64,000 nt of DNA from a virus (IMGVR_UViG_3300027963_003275:10774-74773); one strand, 5' to 3'. Shown: positions 1,539-45,443, counted from the first letter of the stretch. Notes: generated by a model not told the origin, from the letters alone. Numbers and translations: made by a program.

Positions 1539-3832
1539 GCAACGGCACAAAAGTAGTTAAGAGAAGTGGTGATAATGAACCTCTTGATCTAAATAAACTT
1601 CACTTGATGGTTGAGGAGGCATGTAGAGACCTCTCTGGTGTTTCTGCATCACAGGTAGAGATGCAATCTGGTATTCAATTTTATGATGGAATCACCACAG
1701 CAGAAATTCAGGAGATTTTAATTCGTTCTGCTTCTGATTTAATTGATTTGGATAATCCAAATTATCAGTTTGTTGCAGCAAGACTACTTCTGTTTTCTGT
1801 AAGAAAATCTTTGTACGGAAGAGTTCAAGATCATCCTGATTTTGTCGAACACATTAATAGTTGTGTAGATGTTGGAGTTTATGATCCAGAAATTTTGACC
1901 AATTATACGAAAGAAGAACTTGATAGACTTGGTAGTTATATCAAGCATAGTAGAGATTATCTTTTCACCTATGCTGGTCTTCGTCAAGTAGTTGATAAGT
2001 ATTTGGTTCAAGATCGCAGTAGTGGTCAAGTATATGAAACTCCACAGTTCATGTATATGATGATTGCTGCTACTATTTTTGCTAGATATCCAAAAGAAAC
2101 ACGTCTCTCATATGTGAAGAGGTATTATGACGCAATCTCAAAACACAAAATCAACATCCCAACTCCCATTATGGCAGGAGTTAGAACACCTCTCAGGCAG
2201 TTTGCTAGTTGTGTTCTTGTTGATGTTGATGACACCTTGGATAGCATCTTCAGTAGTGATATGGCTATTGGGAGGTATGTTGCTCAAAGGGCAGGCATCG
2301 GCATCAACGCAGGTCGCATCCGTGGCATCAACGCTAAAATCAGAGGTGGAGAGGTACAACACACAGGTGTGGTCCCCTTCCTTAAAAAGTTTGAAGCAAC
2401 TGTGCGATGTTGCACACAAAACGGCATCAGAGGTGGTTCTGCTACAGTCCACTTTCCTATCTGGCATCAAGAAATCGAAGACATTCTAGTCTTAAAAAAC
2501 AACAAGGGTACGGAGGATAATCGTGTTCGTAAGTTAGATTACAGTATCCAAATCTCTAAACTGTTCTATGGACGATTTATTAAAAACGAAGAAATCTCAC
2601 TTTTCTCTCCACACGCAGTTCCTGGTCTTTATGCTGCTTTTGGGACTGATCGATTTGACGATCTTTATGTTGCTGCAGAACGAAATGAATCTATTCCTAG
2701 AAAGACTATCGGAGCTCAAGAACTCTTTTTGGACCTTCTAAAAGAAAGAGCAGAAACTGGTCGTATTTACATTATGAATATTGACCACTGCAACTCACAC
2801 TCTTCTTTCTTGGATAAGGTGGAAATGAGTAATTTGTGCCAGGAGATAACACTTCCTACAGTTCCACTTCAACATATTGATGACCCTAATGGTGAGATTG
2901 CACTTTGCATTCTTTCTGCTATTAATGTCGGTAAAGTAAAATCAGATGAAGAGTTTGAGGATCTTTGCAATCTTTCTGTTCGTGGTTTGGAAGAATTGAT
3001 TGACTATCAAAACTATCCTGTAGTTGCTGCAGAGATTGGAACTAAAGCACGTAGGTCTTTAGGTGTTGGTTACATTGGTTTAGCACATTATCTTGCCAAA
3101 CTTGGGTTTAATTATGATACTCAAGAATCTTGGGATGCAGTTCATCAATTGTCTGAATCATTCCAATATTTCCTTCTTAAAGCATCAAATGAAGTTGCTA
3201 AAGAAAAGGGTGCTTGTGAATATTTCAATCGTACTAAATATTCACAAGGTATTCTTCCTATTGATACTTACAAGAAAGATGTAGATGAAGTGTCTTCTGT
3301 TCCTCTTCAGCACGATTGGGAAGCACTAAGACAGTCAATTAAAGAGTTTGGATTGAGACACTCTACTCTTACAGCACAAATGCCATCAGAATCAAGTTCT
3401 GTAGTTTCAAATGCAACTAATGGAATTGAACCTCCTCGTGGATTCTTATCAATTAAGAAATCTAAAAAAGGACCTCTCAAACAGATTGTTCCACAGTATC
3501 AACATCTTAAAAACAACTATACGTTGCTTTGGGATATGCCTAGCAATCGTGGGTATATTAATATTGTTGCAGTTATGCAGAAGTTCTTTGATCAAGCAAT
3601 TTCTGGAAACTGGTCGTATAATCCAGAGAATTATGCCAATAATGAAGTTCCTGTTAGCGTAATGGCACAAGATATGCTTACTTGTTTTAAACTGGGACAT
3701 AAGACGGCATATTATCAAAATACATATGACAATAAGACTGATGAAGTTAAGGAAGATAAAGTAAGTATTGATGATTTAGTTAAAGAACTTTTAGAAGGTG
3801 GAGAAGAAGATTGTGAATCCTGTAAAATTTAG
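1535..3832 (+). CDS. nrdA: ribonucleotide reductase class Ia alpha subunit
   Basis: N-terminal ATP cone, TPIMAG, SCVL, SNLCQEI catalytic motif, C-terminal CESCKI; ATGA overlap with primase stop. Confidence 0.98.
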   Translation: MSNGTKVVKRSGDNEPLDLNKLHLMVEEACRDLSGVSASQVEMQSGIQFYDGITTAEIQEILIRSASDLIDLDNPNYQFVAARLLLFSVRKSLYGRVQDHPDFVEHINSCVDVGVYDPEILTNYTKEELDRLGSYIKHSRDYLFTYAGLRQVVDKYLVQDRSSGQVYETPQFMYMMIAATIFARYPKETRLSYVKRYYDAISKHKINIPTPIMAGVRTPLRQFASCVLVDVDDTLDSIFSSDMAIGRYVAQRAGIGINAGRIRGINAKIRGGEVQHTGVVPFLKKFEATVRCCTQNGIRGGSATVHFPIWHQEIEDILVLKNNKGTEDNRVRKLDYSIQISKLFYGRFIKNEEISLFSPHAVPGLYAAFGTDRFDDLYVAAERNESIPRKTIGAQELFLDLLKERAETGRIYIMNIDHCNSHSSFLDKVEMSNLCQEITLPTVPLQHIDDPNGEIALCILSAINVGKVKSDEEFEDLCNLSVRGLEELIDYQNYPVVAAEIGTKARRSLGVGYIGLAHYLAKLGFNYDTQESWDAVHQLSESFQYFLLKASNEVAKEKGACEYFNRTKYSQGILPIDTYKKDVDEVSSVPLQHDWEALRQSIKEFGLRHSTLTAQMPSESSSVVSNATNGIEPPRGFLSIKKSKKGPLKQIVPQYQHLKNNYTLLWDMPSNRGYINIVAVMQKFFDQAISGNWSYNPENYANNEVPVSVMAQDMLTCFKLGHKTAYYQNTYDNKTDEVKEDKVSIDDLVKELLEGGEEDCESCKI

Positions 3833-38084: not shown

Positions 38085-38229
38085 TTGACAACATTGGCAT
38101 CCAGTGGTATGATAAATAGATGTTAAGGAATCAACACATTTCTTAATCTTCTGCAACCGAGACCATCAGAAGTAAAGCATCTCTCATACCTGCACTGGAG
38201 GGTGTCGTGGAGTATACTGTACTTGTTCA
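38085..38229 (+). promoter_or_regulatory. psbA-type promoter plus truncated PhotoRC-II-like leader (first copy)
   Basis: TTGACA-N17-TATGAT; shares TATGATAAATAGATGTTAAGG and TTTCTTAATCTT with the psbA leader; GGAGG-loop hairpin present; ends at GTTCA. Confidence 0.7.
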
Positions 38230-38260: not shown

Positions 38261-39421
38261 ATGTCCCTATCCACCAATACCGTTTATAGAGTTTTTGTAG
38301 AAAAACTTGGTGGTGCTAATCCAACTACCTTTGTGGGGGATGAAGGTGAAGTATTTTATAATCCAAATGATGGTGTTCTAAAAATATCAGATGGTTCTAC
38401 TCCAACTGGAATAGTTATGAACCCAATAATGCCAGTTGGTTTTTTTACACCACCAGATAATCACTGGTATGTAAATCCAAATAGAACTGATACATACACT
38501 TCAACTGGTTCTGTTGCTGCTCCTTATAAAACTGTTGGTGCAGCATTAAGTGCAATTCAAAATGCTCTACAAACTGGAATTGTATCTTTTACTGATAATG
38601 GAGATAGTATTGCAAATCCACAATTTGTTATTCTTCAAAGTTCTACAACAGAGAATATAGGACTTACAACAGGACACATTTATATTCAAGGAGATACTAC
38701 AAGTGGTTCTCAAATGCCCATATGGATTTATGGAACAGTCACCATCAATCCAACAGGAGGAACTTTATATCAAAACCGATTTGGACTTTCTAATCTTGGT
38801 ATTGTAAATACTGGAAGTATTCCAGGTATTGCAGCAACGCACTCATTAATAGTTACTGGTTCAGCACCTCTTCGTTGTTATCTAAATGATTGTAATATCA
38901 TTGCAGGTTCTACAGGAAATCAGGCAATTTTTATGGATAATAGTGGAACTGGAACTCAATTATATGCAGAAGTTCAACAATTATCCAGAGCAGGTACAGC
39001 AGGAACTGATTATATTGCAAAAGTCAGTAAAGGATATGCATTTTTTAGTAACTGCTCAACTGGTGGTTCAACTGCTACATTTAATGTAAGTGGAACAGGA
39101 ACTCTACAAATCCAGTATAGTAAAATTGAAAGTGCTGGAGAAGCCTGTGTAAAAGTTGATGGTGGAACTGCTATAGTTACTAGCACATCTCTAACAAATA
39201 CTGTAGGACATGGAGTATCAATGACTGCTGGTACTCTTGTAACAATCAATAATTACTTTGATATACCTACATCTCCTGCTACTAACAGAGCAATTGCTGG
39301 TGTCTCTGGAGTTTTCGTTTTTCATTCCAATACAGTAGTTGCTTATTTAAAAAATTCAAAGTATAGCACTGCAATTGGTGCTGGATATATTGGATTAGTA
39401 ACTGCATTAACTGCATTATAA
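38261..39421 (+). CDS. putative virion protein with beta-helix (pectin-lyase-like) character
   Basis: N-terminal FVGDEGEVFY.P..G.LKISDG attachment-like motif, GS.AAPYKT...A, G/T/S-rich beta repeats. Confidence 0.6.
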   Translation: MSLSTNTVYRVFVEKLGGANPTTFVGDEGEVFYNPNDGVLKISDGSTPTGIVMNPIMPVGFFTPPDNHWYVNPNRTDTYTSTGSVAAPYKTVGAALSAIQNALQTGIVSFTDNGDSIANPQFVILQSSTTENIGLTTGHIYIQGDTTSGSQMPIWIYGTVTINPTGGTLYQNRFGLSNLGIVNTGSIPGIAATHSLIVTGSAPLRCYLNDCNIIAGSTGNQAIFMDNSGTGTQLYAEVQQLSRAGTAGTDYIAKVSKGYAFFSNCSTGGSTATFNVSGTGTLQIQYSKIESAGEACVKVDGGTAIVTSTSLTNTVGHGVSMTAGTLVTINNYFDIPTSPATNRAIAGVSGVFVFHSNTVVAYLKNSKYSTAIGAGYIGLVTALTAL

Positions 39422-39439: not shown

Positions 39440-39468
39440 TTGACAGGATTTGCTGACAATGCTATGAT
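39440..39468 (+). promoter_or_regulatory. psbA sigma70-type promoter
   Basis: TTGACA-N17-TATGAT. Confidence 0.85.
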
Positions 39469-39499
39469 AAATAGATGTTAAGGGATGTAACGTTTCTTA

Positions 39500-39620
39500 A
39501 TCTTGCCGCACCAGGAATAGGCAAGTAAAATCCGTCCTTATACCTACGCAGGAGGGTTGCGTAGGAATACTTTTACCGTTCAGCACCTCCTGAACTATTA
39601 CCTACCCCTTTAACGAAAAA
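39500..39620 (+). ncRNA. structured psbA 5' leader (PhotoRC-II-like motif)
   Basis: CCTACGCA-GGAGGGT-TGCGTAGG and GTTCAG-CACCTC-CTGAAC hairpins with complementary loops (GAGG/CCTC); position typical of the cyanophage PhotoRC-II motif. Confidence 0.7.
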
Positions 39621-40700
39621 ATGACTGCTACAATTGCTACACGCAAAACTTTTAATGTCTGGGACGAATTCTGCTCCTGGGTGACTTCTACCGATAACCG
39701 TCTTTATGTTGGTTGGTTCGGTGTTCTGATGATTCCAACGTTGCTTGCTGCAACCACTTGTTTTATCATCGCATTCATCGGTGCTCCCCCTGTGGACATT
39801 GATGGCATTCGTGAACCTGTTTCTGGTTCATTAATGTATGGAAACAACATTATCTCTGGTGCTGTTGTTCCTTCCTCTAATGCTATTGGACTTCACTTGT
39901 ATCCTATCTGGGAAGCTGCTTCTCTGGATGAATGGTTATACAATGGTGGACCTTTTCAACTTGTTATATTTCACTTTCTCATTGGTATCTTTTGCTATAT
40001 GGGTCGTGAATGGGAACTCTCTTACCGTCTAGGTATGCGTCCTTGGATTATGGTTGCTTACTCTGCACCTGTTGCTGCTGCGACTGCCGTATTCCTGGTG
40101 TATCCTTTCGGTCAAGGTTCTTTCTCTGATGCTATGCCTTTGGGCATTTCCGGTACTTTTAACTATATGCTTGTCTTCCAGGCAGAACATAACATCCTTA
40201 TGCACCCATTCCACATGCTTGGAGTTGCTGGTGTCTTCGGTGGTTCACTTTTTAGCGCAATGCACGGTTCGCTAGTGACTTCTTCACTGGTTCGTGAAAC
40301 TACTGAAACTGAATCGCAGAATTATGGTTATAAGTTCGGACAAGAAGAAGAGACATACAACATCGTTGCTGCTCATGGTTATTTTGGTCGTCTTATCTTC
40401 CAATATGCGTCCTTTAATAACTCGCGTTCATTGCACTTCTTCCTGGCTGCTTGGCCTGTTGTAGGCATCTGGTTCACTGCTCTTGGTGTATCCACGATGG
40501 CTTTCAATTTGAATGGACTGAATTTTAACCAATCGATCCTTGATAGTCAGGGTCGTGTTGTAAACACCTGGGCTGATATCCTAAATCGTGCCAATCTTGG
40601 GTTTGAGGTGGTTCACGAGAGAAATGCACATAACTATCCTTTGGATCTTGCTGCAGTATCTACTACTGAAGTTGCTTTGACTGCTCCAAGTATTGGATAA
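39621..40700 (+). CDS. psbA: photosystem II D1 protein (E130 form), intronless
   Basis: Full D1 sequence: [38 protein letters not shown]. Confidence 0.99.
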
Positions 40701-41049
40701 GTTTAGATAAAATCTGAATATTATCCCCAACTAATCCGAGTGCAGTGTTGCAGTTATTGCATAACACTCCTCGGATTTTTTCTTTATTGTGGCAGTGGTC
40801 AATACATTTTTTATTTGTTATATCTCTACTACATACTTGGCAGTTATCGTGCTTCATAAGTTCATTATATTCTGCTTCCGATAATTTGAATTTTCTCCTC
40901 ATATATTCGTGAGGTTTATAATATTGCTTTCTATTTTTAGTAGAACATTCTTTACATTTTGGTTGAAGTCCTATTTTGCCAGAACTATAAGTTCTTTTAT
41001 GGAACAAATCTTCTGATAGTTCCATCTCACAAGAAGTGCAAGTTTTCAT
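40663..41049 (-). CDS. endonuclease VII-family homing endonuclease (F-CphI-like)
   Basis: Zn motifs CTSC/CKEC, CQVC...IDHCH....[12 protein letters not shown]; convergent with and overlapping psbA. Confidence 0.85.
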
Positions 41050-41074
41050 TATTGTAATGCGTATTTTCTATACT

Positions 41075-41082
41075 TATTTATA
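41075..41082 (-). promoter_or_regulatory. late promoter for the endonuclease
   Basis: TATTTATA on + = TATAAATA on -, 25 nt upstream of the start. Confidence 0.75.
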
Positions 41083-41100
41083 ATAAATAATCAATAAAAA

Positions 41101-41166
41101 ATGCTCCTCATCCTCATACTCTTCCAACTCTTCGGAGTGTTCCTCTTTCTAATGTCCCTACTATGA
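41101..41166 (+). CDS. tiny hydrophobic peptide (21 aa)
   Basis: MLLILILFQLFGVFLFLMSLL*; ATGA-coupled to the next ORF. Confidence 0.4.
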   Translation: MLLILILFQLFGVFLFLMSLL

Positions 41167-41806: not shown

Positions 41807-43390
41807 ATGGGAAGATACATTAAGACAAGAATTGTTACTAGTGGATTGATTTATGTGAATGATGCAGGAAATACTAAGTCATATTCTGGTGTTGGAACAG
41901 CAGTTAAAAACTTAGTCGGTTATGGTGCGACTAATACAACATTTAATCAAACATTTGTATCTTCAGGGACAACAAGTTATTTTGTATCAACAGGTTCAAC
42001 TTCTTATATAAGCAATACAAATGTTTCTGTATCTGCTTCAACAGGTCGTGGATTTACTATTTGTATGATGATTAAACCACAAACTTTAACGAATAGTGAA
42101 TGGAATTATTGGTTTCAACAGGATAGCTCTAGGTCTTCCGTACAATTTGGAAGATATGGAACTTCTGGTGGATGGGAGATGAAAGATAATGCAAAACAAG
42201 AAGGAGAAAAAACATTCACTTCAGTTGGCACTACAACTTGGACGGTTCCAGTTGGTGTAACTACTATCACTGCTATTTGTATTGGTGCTGGAGGAGGTGG
42301 TGGAGGTCATAATTTTGATGAAGGAGGAGGTGGAGGTGGAGGTGGAGGACTGTCATTTGGTTCTACTATATCTGTAACTCCTGGTGATATTTTGTATATA
42401 AGAGTTGGTTCTGGTGGAACTGGAGGAATTTCAACAACTTCAAGTAGTTCCAATGTTGCTGGAGCAGGTTCAACTGGAGGATCAAGTTATATAAAAACAG
42501 GATCACATTCTGGAACTTCACTTCTTGAGGCTTTTGGTGGAACTGGAGGACAAGGAGGTGATGGTCCAGGATCTCCAAATCCTGGAGTTGGTGGAACATC
42601 TGGTGGAACTGCTAGAACTAATGGTGGTTCTGGTGGAATTGGAGGAAGAGGGGGAAGTTTTTATTCTGGTGGAGGTGGTGGTGCTGGTGGATATACTGGA
42701 GTTGGGGGAACTGGTGCTATGTCTTCTGGGACTACTGCTTCAGATAGAGCTACCTCTGGTCTTGGAGGTGGTGGTGGAGGGGGAGGAAATAGCCAACCCA
42801 GCACACTTATCAATTCATATACAGAAATTTTAAATTCTGGTGGTGGAGTTGGGATATATGGATCTGGATCTAACGGATCTGGAGGAAACTACACATCAGG
42901 ATATTCTAATAGGGGTGGAGGTGGAGGAAGTTCAGGAACAACTGGAGATTCTGCTGGGGGACTTTATGGTGGAGGTGGAGGAACAAGACCAGAGAGTACT
43001 CTGGGAATTAATTTTGTAAGAAATGGTGGAACTGGTGGACAAGGTGCTGTAAGAATTGTCTGGGGAAGTGGCAGATCGTATCCAACCACTAGTATTTCTA
43101 ATACTCCCATACCACCAAAACAATCTACATCTTTTTCTGATTGGACTTTTGTTGTTTGTGGAGTAACAACAAACTATTATACTTTTATATCAACTAATGG
43201 AAGCACTAAGACCTTGGGATCTTCTAATGATTGGAACAACTCTGATGAAATTAATTTGGATAAAATATTTGGAACAGGAACAAACAATTATAGTTGCTTA
43301 TGGAATAATGTGATGATTTATAATCGTGAATTAACAAATGATGAAATTCAAATAAACTTTGAAGCATATAGACGTAAGTTTAATCTTTAA
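41807..43390 (+). CDS. Gly-rich fibre/adhesin-like protein, paralog 1 (LamG-like ends)
   Basis: GLIY..DAGN.KSY.G.GT start, TWTVP.GVT...GGGGGG core, GAVRIVWG, IYNRELT..EI..NF end. Confidence 0.75.
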   Translation: MGRYIKTRIVTSGLIYVNDAGNTKSYSGVGTAVKNLVGYGATNTTFNQTFVSSGTTSYFVSTGSTSYISNTNVSVSASTGRGFTICMMIKPQTLTNSEWNYWFQQDSSRSSVQFGRYGTSGGWEMKDNAKQEGEKTFTSVGTTTWTVPVGVTTITAICIGAGGGGGGHNFDEGGGGGGGGGLSFGSTISVTPGDILYIRVGSGGTGGISTTSSSSNVAGAGSTGGSSYIKTGSHSGTSLLEAFGGTGGQGGDGPGSPNPGVGGTSGGTARTNGGSGGIGGRGGSFYSGGGGGAGGYTGVGGTGAMSSGTTASDRATSGLGGGGGGGGNSQPSTLINSYTEILNSGGGVGIYGSGSNGSGGNYTSGYSNRGGGGGSSGTTGDSAGGLYGGGGGTRPESTLGINFVRNGGTGGQGAVRIVWGSGRSYPTTSISNTPIPPKQSTSFSDWTFVVCGVTTNYYTFISTNGSTKTLGSSNDWNNSDEINLDKIFGTGTNNYSCLWNNVMIYNRELTNDEIQINFEAYRRKFNL

Positions 43391-45048: not shown

Positions 45049-45071
45049 ATAATCATAAGTTGCAAATACTT

Positions 45072-45443
45072 ATGGTTCCTCTACATTCGTTCAAGGACTA
45101 TCTGTTTAATCTAGAGACAACAAGTAAAGCAGAAGCAAAACGAATGTGGAGGAGGATTATAAAAGAACAATGGGAACATAAGTGTGCCTATTGTAATTCA
45201 GAAGACAATATCACACTAGACCACATCACTCCACAGTGTAAGGGTGGTCTGGACATTAAGACTAATGTAGTTGCTTGCTGTCATTCGTGCAATCAATCTA
45301 AGGGACATACTCCTTGGGAGCAGTGGTATTATAATCAAGACTTCTTTACAGAAGCAAAAAGAGATGCTATAGTAAAATGGATGAAACCAGAAGAAAATTC
45401 AAATCTATATAAGTATAGACCAAGAAGAAATAATGCGTCTTAA
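45072..45443 (+). CDS. HNH endonuclease
   Basis: CAYC...TLDHITPQCKGG...NVVACCHSCNQSKG. Confidence 0.9.
   Translation: MVPLHSFKDYLFNLETTSKAEAKRMWRRIIKEQWEHKCAYCNSEDNITLDHITPQCKGGLDIKTNVVACCHSCNQSKGHTPWEQWYYNQDFFTEAKRDAIVKWMKPEENSNLYKYRPRRNNAS

Follow-up and report, generated by a model that had tools for sequence, protein, structure and literature searches.

An F-CphI-like endonuclease gene overlapping an intronless cyanophage psbA, with a candidate immunity patch at codons 339-342

The psbA gene and its minus-strand neighbour

We analysed a stretch of viral DNA of 64,000 nucleotides (hereafter the window), which is part of a 74.8-kb viral contig rated 39% complete. Its genes td and phoH and those for an exonuclease, a helicase loader and a gp32-like SSB are a T4-like cyanomyovirus set, and the stretch was found in metagenome runs of freshwater, lakes and rivers that belong to 14 studies. 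Deposited phage records contained nothing above 83.1% for the 60-nt region 40596-40655. The features around psbA are the following:

39440-39468, plus strand: sigma-70-like promoter 5' of psbA (TTGACA-17-TATGAT, 11/12, with TG; a consensus match only)
39488-39578, plus strand: PhotoRC-II RNA motif of the psbA leader (Rfam RF01717; 49.5 bits, gathering threshold 39)
39621-40700, plus strand: psbA (D1), single frame, 359 aa, intronless
39897-39899, plus strand: codon of L93
40518-40520, plus strand: codon CTG of L300
40611-40613, plus strand: codon 331, GTT (Val, not Met), a lineage polymorphism unlinked to nucleases
40635-40637, plus strand: codon TAT of Y339
40663-41049, minus strand: putative free-standing homing endonuclease with EndoVII motif (DHHRN, F-CphI-like), 128 aa
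41075-41082, minus strand: TATAAATA, resembling a T4-type late promoter, 26 nt before the nuclease ATG and within the cassette described below

The psbA product matches Pfam Photo_RC at 4e-90 and contains Y161, D170, E189, H190, H198, H215, H272, H332, E333, H337, D342 and A344, which we take from the PSII literature to be redox-active or Mn-ligating. These 12 residues are invariant with respect to the D1 of phage S-SKS1, and the features expected of a PsbA protein are thus present, including the extension past A344. An earlier note on this DNA had described the gene as intronless and as carrying V331, Y339, L300 and L93, and both the single open frame and the reading of the codons bear this out; no group I intron (Rfam, Intron_gpI) was found anywhere in the 64,000-nt window. 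To place these residues we used a control sample of 80 viral psbA loci with their flanks, in which downstream genes were tallied by Pfam. M331 and F339 are indeed the usual state of D1, since V331 and Y339 are each found in 0 of the 80 loci. L300, which had also been called unusual, is rare in the sample (4/80), whereas L93, to which the same had been applied, is a common polymorphism (14/80).

The minus-strand ORF runs tail to tail into psbA and overlaps it by 38 nt (40663-40700), so that its final 12 codons are antisense to psbA codons 348-359. Its residues 50-122 match Pfam Endonuclease_7 (PF02945) at 5.3e-16, with 58.7 bits against a cut-off of 23.6, which together with the coordinates confirms the previously proposed EndoVII ORF over the last 38 nt of psbA. 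The protein also matches the PHROG endonuclease VII family (1.5e-32). A CxxC...CxxC region lies in its N-terminal part and the catalytic motif (D84, H85, H87, R93, N99/N101) in its C-terminal part. BLASTP aligns it with F-CphI of cyanophage S-PM2 over its whole length (query residues 2-123) at 30% identity. In both the BLASTP and the MAFFT alignments, the motif residues stand opposite D101, H102, H104, R110 and the two Asn of CRNCN in F-CphI, and D101, H102 and R110 of that enzyme are reported to be essential.

The likeness to F-CphI goes beyond the motif itself. Both proteins have a C-terminal EndoVII motif behind a Cys-rich N-terminal region, both are encoded by a free-standing gene directly after psbA, and both would target the conserved stretch of psbA that surrounds the site of intron insertion; a 60-bp psbA substrate of F-CphI is given in Table S3 of PMC6083498. 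The two differ in that they are only 30% identical and in that the window gene lies on the opposite strand, with its 38-nt overlap of psbA. The closest deposited relative is gp28 of S-SKS1, annotated as endonuclease VII, with 58.5% identity over 96% of the query and a place in the same cluster at 60% linkage. Fang et al. 2018 lists gp28 with a C-terminal motif, the arrangement of its 'endonuclease clade'. Like the window nuclease, gp28 is encoded directly downstream of psbA, but its gene lies on the psbA strand without overlap, and the D1 of S-SKS1 has I331 and F339. Among solved structures, a PDB sequence search at E up to 0.01 returned a sole chain, Hpy99I (3fc3; E 1.2e-6, residues 2-123), and did not return the T4 EndoVII chain. 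The alignment with Hpy99I takes in both the Cys-rich region and the catalytic motif and, as the sole solved match, fits a homing endonuclease and not a gp49-type resolvase. Hpy99I itself is, unlike the window protein, a restriction enzyme, which in Helicobacter is paired with a methylase; no methylase adjoins the window gene.

The Pfam match, which is the sole one to Endonuclease_7 in the 74.8-kb contig, might be thought to mark this ORF as the Holliday-junction resolvase of the phage, equivalent to gp49 of T4, rather than as a homing endonuclease. Because so much of the genome lies outside the contig, the absence of another resolvase means little. The features of gp49, an N-terminal motif and whole-length similarity, were not found, and the motif lies instead at the C-terminus behind CxxC...CxxC, as in F-CphI and in the 'endonuclease clade' of Fang et al. 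2018. Moreover, the gene is missing from close relatives, unrelated nucleases are swapped in at the same spot, and it moves as a cassette, all of which make a resolvase extremely improbable. Judged from its sequence, the minus-strand ORF is a free-standing F-CphI-like homing endonuclease in a new arrangement; the alignment of the DHHRN residues, the C-terminal position of the motif and the adjacency to psbA support the F-CphI type that the earlier note had assigned to it. F-CphI, collaborative homing and the CfrI antisense RNA had already been described. What is new is the psbA-overlapping arrangement of an F-CphI-like nuclease: we found no report of a psbA-overlapping antisense nuclease in the open-access full texts searched.

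The expression of the nuclease can be considered from its surroundings. Convergent transcription would probably make the nuclease mRNA antisense to the psbA 3' end, a relation between psbA and the nuclease locus that S-PM2 has with CfrI. A late promoter of its own had been proposed for the nuclease, and TATAAATA is correctly placed for this role; yet this motif is not enriched in the window, with 8 occurrences against 7.4 expected by chance, and its position alone therefore argues for function. Contigs from RNA libraries span 40563-40718 and 40791-41038; they are strandless and may include DNA carry-over, so they are not proof of nuclease expression.

Transfer of the nuclease gene with the psbA 3' end

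Two further features delimit the nuclease gene as a mobile unit:

40575-41115, no strand assigned: cassette of 541 bp comprising psbA codons 319-359, the entire nuclease gene and 66 bp upstream of it, identical in contig L004
41098-41160, no strand assigned: conserved post-psbA element, the right edge of the nuclease insertion (L038/L039 90%, L048 86%, L058/L059 68% over a longer stretch)

In the nuclease-free relatives (L038/L039, L048 and L058/L059), the homolog of the sequence from 41101 onward begins about 54 bp past the psbA stop, which shows that the nuclease is an insertion between psbA and this element. The gene is also optional on a broader scale. Within the 80-locus sample, the genes 3' of psbA include 14 with an EndoVII motif, five of the HNH type and one NUMOD3 protein, so an EndoVII gene follows psbA in 14/80 loci, between conserved neighbours.

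The comparison with L004 is the clearest sign of movement. Its psbA differs from that of the window by 160 mismatches in the 973 bp of 39602-40574 (16%), there are 0 mismatches in 40575-41115, and mismatches resume from 41116; the encoded nucleases are accordingly identical. Such a stretch of 541 bp with no difference inside a 16%-divergent psbA indicates a recently transferred cassette, and the claim that the nuclease moves with this psbA allele is thereby upheld. A DNA contig from an unrelated run joins an L004-type background to the cassette at 40563. A second and unrelated type of nuclease, in L012, L099 and L105, lies in a tract that is nearly identical between about -340 and +420 relative to the psbA end, whereas the psbA genes of these contigs are 13-25% divergent further 5'. 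Taken together, the two tracts indicate that units of psbA 3' end and nuclease are exchanged between diverged phages. The co-transfer of nuclease and psbA 3' end is recent recombination. A cut by the nuclease would be the natural reading of what drives the transfer of the tract, the identical tract alone showing recombination and not its cause.

Y339, its DNA patch and the adjoining nucleases

The earlier note had linked V331 and Y339, as a pair, to the nuclease, and had counted V331, L300 and L93 among possible immunity changes. The combined V331+Y339 pattern was found in at least 4 viral contigs and at least 10 metagenome contigs; counts from pattern scans are lower bounds, and the scan of viral contigs missed one matching contig, L011. 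An EndoVII gene adjoins psbA in all of these viral contigs and in 9/10 metagenome contigs, the tenth (L102) having just an HTH-domain ORF in the 717 bp available downstream. The pattern had 0 matches in one genome each of 185,579 prokaryote species. Scans of single residues separated the two changes, and we rejected them as a linked pair. V331 with F339 was found at 12 loci among the matches listed, of which 2 have an EndoVII gene and 10 have none, and most of these loci also have L300. The V331/F339 combination occurs in 0/401 sampled cyanobacterial genomes, a sample about one-third informative given that the standard D1 pattern was recovered in 14/41 such genomes. V331 and L300 thus characterize a lineage of phage D1 and are not tied to the nuclease; we dropped V331, and L300 with it, as an immunity change. 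All three residues, L93 included, would be polymorphisms of the phage D1 lineage that lie outside immunity, and this part of the earlier proposal falls.

Y339 behaves differently. A scan for it with any residue at position 331 gave 11 loci among the matches listed, 7 of them new and with M331 or L331, and an EndoVII gene adjoins psbA in 11/11. With L011 and the window, Y339 stands beside an EndoVII gene in 13/13 viral contigs, against 16/92 for F339 (Fisher p 4.9e-9), where the F339 controls pool the 80-locus sample (14/80 positive) and the V331/F339 scan (2/12). Restricting the comparison to the two scans gives 11/11 against 2/12 (Fisher p 6.7e-5). The proposed co-occurrence with the nuclease thus stands for Y339, but not for V331. 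Clustering at 60% identity divides the nucleases beside Y339 into six clusters, and both orientations occur among them. In one genome each of 185,579 prokaryote species, Y339 had 1 match, a divergent D1 paralog in a cyanobacterial MAG, which reads TAT CCC TTA GAT and has no nuclease neighbour. We found no report of a Y339 allele of psbA in the open-access full texts searched. S339, as read in contig L081, is an artefact of an intron. AGR at codon 334, considered as a synonymous immunity change, was found in 9/17 against 23/73 (p 0.16) and was discarded.

The association extends to the DNA around the codon, where two features matter:

40635-40646, plus strand: Y339 patch TAT CCT TTG GAT, codons 339-342, the proposed determinant of nuclease immunity
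40622-40623, plus strand: site homologous to the S-PM2/L005 intron site, between R334 and N335, unoccupied in the window

The patch reads TAT CCT TTG GAT in 11/11 distinct phage Y339 alleles. None of the 14 codons flanking it (329-337 and 343-347) is constant among these same alleles (Fisher p 3.3e-4, post hoc). Of the 89 distinct alleles with F339, 48 have CCT, 13 have TTG and 48 have GAT. Since CCT and GAT are common anyway, much of the signal rests on TTG (13/89) and TAT. Codons 343-359, which lie between the patch and the nuclease, vary more than the patch although they are nearer to the nuclease, so physical linkage alone does not explain the patch. One might also see in it a binding site instead of a resistant site, as could be suggested by the pseudo-palindrome ATCC-TTT-GGAT inside it, but we find this doubtful.

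These data bear on whether V331 and Y339 are simply ordinary traits of a clade of freshwater-cyanophage D1 in which nucleases are frequent, with Y339 hitch-hiking and having no effect on cleavage. V331 and L300 do behave in this way, as shown by the 10 of 12 V331/F339 loci that lack an EndoVII gene, and a single clade of the V331/Y339 subset was not rejected on codons 20-300 (p 0.555). The controlled comparison is without power, as only 3 phylogenetically independent contrasts were available and none reached significance (p 0.25 or more). Contig L120, moreover, retains beside F339 a nuclease 91% identical to one found beside Y339. Against such hitch-hiking, Y339 is found with a nuclease in 13/13 contigs when its sister V331/F339 group has one in 2/12, and the monophyly of the Y339 genes was rejected on codons 141-297 (AU p 0.00066); the gene of one Y339 contig, L111, groups as sister to that of S-SKS1, an F339 gene. 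An invariant patch with variable codons between it and the nuclease is also the opposite of what simple linkage produces. We thus consider hitch-hiking fairly unlikely.

Could F339Y instead be selected at the level of the protein, for reasons unrelated to nucleases, at the Cl-2 site or at the contact with CP43 near the Mn cluster? The backbone N of D1-Phe339 contributes to the Cl-2 site according to PMC9896922, and the Phe339 side chain is in contact with CP43-F317 according to bioRxiv 10.1101/2025.07.17.665390; Y339 is, moreover, nearly confined to phages. Such selection leaves unexplained both the strict co-occurrence with nucleases and the invariant synonymous sites of P340, L341 and D342, and we hold it to be very unlikely. 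The change from Phe to Tyr retains the backbone and the ring, and F339Y is thus plausibly tolerated; a small cost of F339Y would account for Y339 being seen in phages only with an adjoining nuclease.

Group I introns point to the same few codons. The background given for F-CphI in the earlier note is correct: its gene adjoins the psbA of S-PM2, in which an intron lies between R334 and N335. Contig L005 has F339 and a group I intron at this position (72.7 bits), homologous to that of S-PM2, and it encodes a nuclease 88% identical to that of the window. The psbA genes of L005 and the window are 92-97% identical over codons 71-200, but only 60-68% over codons 311-340. Comparison of the two thus reveals one nuclease lineage that is accompanied by an intron in L005 and by the Y339 patch in the window; an intron in the carrier's own target gene, the feature of collaborative homing, is present in L005 and absent from the window. 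In L081, which belongs to the 80-locus sample, a group I intron lies between H337 and N338, and psbA is followed by an ORF of the PHROG class 'homing endonuclease'. The group I intron of L130 falls between L341 and D342 and splits the sequence homologous to the patch, which the L081 site flanks. The three intron sites lie within 21 nt, an indication that several nucleases cut here. We found no report of introns between H337 and N338 or between L341 and D342 in the open-access full texts searched.

The L005 intron also helps to weigh a different target. The nuclease might recognize an unoccupied site at the very 3' terminus of psbA or in the spacer, in which case its insertion would itself immunize the carrier, and the patch would be a relic of, or a protection against, other nucleases that circulate in this phage population. 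This is suggested by the position of the nuclease, which fits precisely into the gap from the psbA stop to the conserved element, and by two co-directional relatives, in L085 and L124, which end in a duplicated D1-like tail, an insertion footprint in the psbA 3' end. It is further suggested by the relatives of the window nuclease that lie beside intronless F339 alleles, and by the patch being common to different nucleases. However, the 88%-identical nuclease of L005 accompanies an intron between R334 and N335, which points to a target of the lineage inside psbA, and the identical tract shared with L004 extends 125 bp into psbA, beyond the patch. Such an empty-site target seems to us quite improbable.

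A possible intron-free immunity of the carrier

Our results incline us, with somewhat better than even confidence, to the view that a nuclease cassette rewrites the psbA 3' end, the F339Y patch being the likely immunity change. The nuclease gene, inserted after psbA in convergent orientation and ahead of the conserved element, makes up a single unit with the promoter-like sequence upstream of it and psbA codons 319-359, and this unit recombines into the psbA of other phages. A cut within or near codons 334-342 of a nuclease-free psbA would most likely drive the transfer, and repair from the nuclease-bearing genome would lead to co-conversion of the psbA 3' end. TAT CCT TTG GAT, including F339Y, would likely keep the psbA of the carrier uncut, and would thus do the job of the group I intron in S-PM2 and L005. 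Unlike in S-PM2, psbA is intronless in the window, where protection would come from a patch that alters an amino acid.

There is a precedent for such intronless homing. SegF and SegG of T-even phages are nucleases of the GIY-YIG family, which differs from that of the window nuclease. They too are encoded by optional genes between conserved genes, with co-conversion of flanking markers, and their carriers are protected by sequence differences at the target site, as described in PMC6083498; we propose likewise for the window. Unlike in the SegF and SegG systems, the protecting change here would alter a residue of a reaction centre next to ligands of the Mn cluster.

Some observations fit this proposal poorly. 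Among the F339 controls, 16 loci combine an EndoVII gene with the absence of an intron. A search with the nuclease as query gave five more contigs (L006-L010), whose nucleases, 71-81% identical to that of the window, lie beside M331/F339, again without an intron. L120, one of the 16 controls, has F339 and the 91%-identical relative of the nuclease in Y339 contig L015, and the two contigs are evenly 10-15% divergent, without an exchanged tract. Hence Y339 is not required for living beside such nucleases. Furthermore, the occurrence of one patch beside six nuclease clusters is not predicted by a lineage-specific target; it needs either a target shared by the clusters or a role of the patch as a guard against nucleases brought by co-infecting phages. 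We nonetheless infer, with good support from the comparison of sequences, that the F339Y patch may confer immunity. Of the suggestion that psbA was altered for immunity, what remains is thus the Y339 patch, to which the 13/13 against 16/92 contigs point, without V331, L300 and L93.

A wider reading, which we put forward tentatively and with slightly less than even confidence, is that a conflict between nuclease and target has changed a protein of the PSII reaction centre. The 12-nt patch would then be a portable immunity module, handed from one phage psbA to another, kept only beside nucleases that cut psbA, and an alternative to introns. Under this reading, F339Y lies three residues from the Mn ligand D342, at the Cl-2 site, and the same 27 nt are the meeting point of at least three intron sites and six nuclease clusters.

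No host-derived gene of cyanophages is better known than psbA, which also serves as a standard marker of cyanophage diversity. If the cassette takes the final 41 codons of psbA along, the trees and recombination maps drawn from psbA for freshwater cyanophages partly record nuclease traffic. The proposal, if true, would also provide a simple pair of substrates for defining recognition by a little-studied family of nucleases. Finally, if the F339Y patch confers immunity, it would be a clear natural case of selfish DNA imposing a substitution on a nearly invariant segment next to the site of water splitting.

Selfish elements and intron sites in psbA

Three selfish elements are lodged in one phage gene in the psbA of locus L110 (and also of L116), which in addition carries the Y339 patch (TAT CCT TTG GAT, codons 339-342). 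In L110 these are:

131-831, insertion of about 700 bp that contains a LAGLIDADG ORF (Pfam 1.3e-7), located at codon 183/184
1162-1389, group I intron between N298 and G299 (79.7 bits)
1675-2196, EndoVII nuclease of 173 aa, after psbA

Two further intron sites, neither of which we found in the literature searched, lie closer to the end of the gene. In L081, a group I intron between H337 and N338 is followed by an ORF annotated in PHROG as 'homing endonuclease', whose match to GIY-YIG is weak (2512-2750 and 2916-3644). The other site, between L341 and D342, holds a group I intron in L130 (about 1497-1270, minus strand), where no nuclease was seen in the approximately 1.2 kb downstream.

psbA of L111 and S-SKS1, codon 337 and a cellular Y339 gene

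Over psbA codons 141-297, the metagenomic contig L111 is almost the same as the isolate S-SKS1 (L002), and the two are sister rows with support 100. Yet their 3' ends are unlike: L111 has L331/Y339, an intron between N298 and G299 and a nuclease other than that of S-SKS1, whereas S-SKS1 has I331/F339 and the nuclease gp28.

Alleles adjoining an EndoVII nuclease are enriched in CAT over CAC at H337 (window 40629-40631). The CAT codon was found in 11 of 17 F339 and 13 of 15 Y339 nuclease-adjacent alleles, against 19 of 73 nuclease-free ones (unadjusted p 0.0039), in a post hoc test on one of nine codons looked at and with phylogeny uncontrolled.

Among 185,579 species genomes, the sole cellular match with Y339 came from a cyanobacterial MAG (L131; genome G001, contig C100), where it is the third D1-like gene. 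This gene is divergent, encodes I331/Y339 and is partly masked by N. It adjoins a 448-aa ORF that, by eye, we take to resemble isopropylmalate or citramalate synthase.

Genes and motifs around psbA in the window

The PhotoRC-II RNA motif is elsewhere known from psbA leaders. The window has a second copy, upstream of a non-photosynthetic gene, and several other features near psbA:

38134-38223, second PhotoRC-II motif (43.3 bits, gathering score 39)
38261-39421, ORF of 386 aa downstream of this motif, with no Pfam family
41807-43390, Gly/Ser-rich ORF of 527 aa
43435-45048, Gly/Ser-rich ORF of 537 aa, neighbour and paralogue of the preceding one
45060-45443, HNH endonuclease ORF of 127 aa (Pfam HNH_5, 2.7e-10), 4 kb downstream of psbA

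Both Gly/Ser-rich ORFs match phrog_4474, and the first has an additional weak match to a tail-fibre-assembly family. DNA homologous to the region of the HNH_5 ORF also occurs near psbA in L004, L005 and L015, so that with this ORF the psbA neighbourhood contains two nuclease genes.

Nuclease tails at the psbA 3' end

Two psbA-adjacent, co-directional nucleases, in L085 (2665-3060) and L124 (1663-2070), end in D1-like tails, ..AESTPVALTAPTIG and ..ATDATPVALPAPTK, respectively. These tails are a duplicated psbA 3' end joined to the nuclease frame, and the duplication looks like the footprint of an insertion. A different kind of tail is common to three nuclease clusters that are only 35-48% identical (window 40663-40700; L011, L012, L013): they have exactly the same 11-residue C-terminus, because it is the antisense reading of 11 psbA residues. 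Nuclease genes therefore appear to have been swapped by crossover inside their overlap with psbA.
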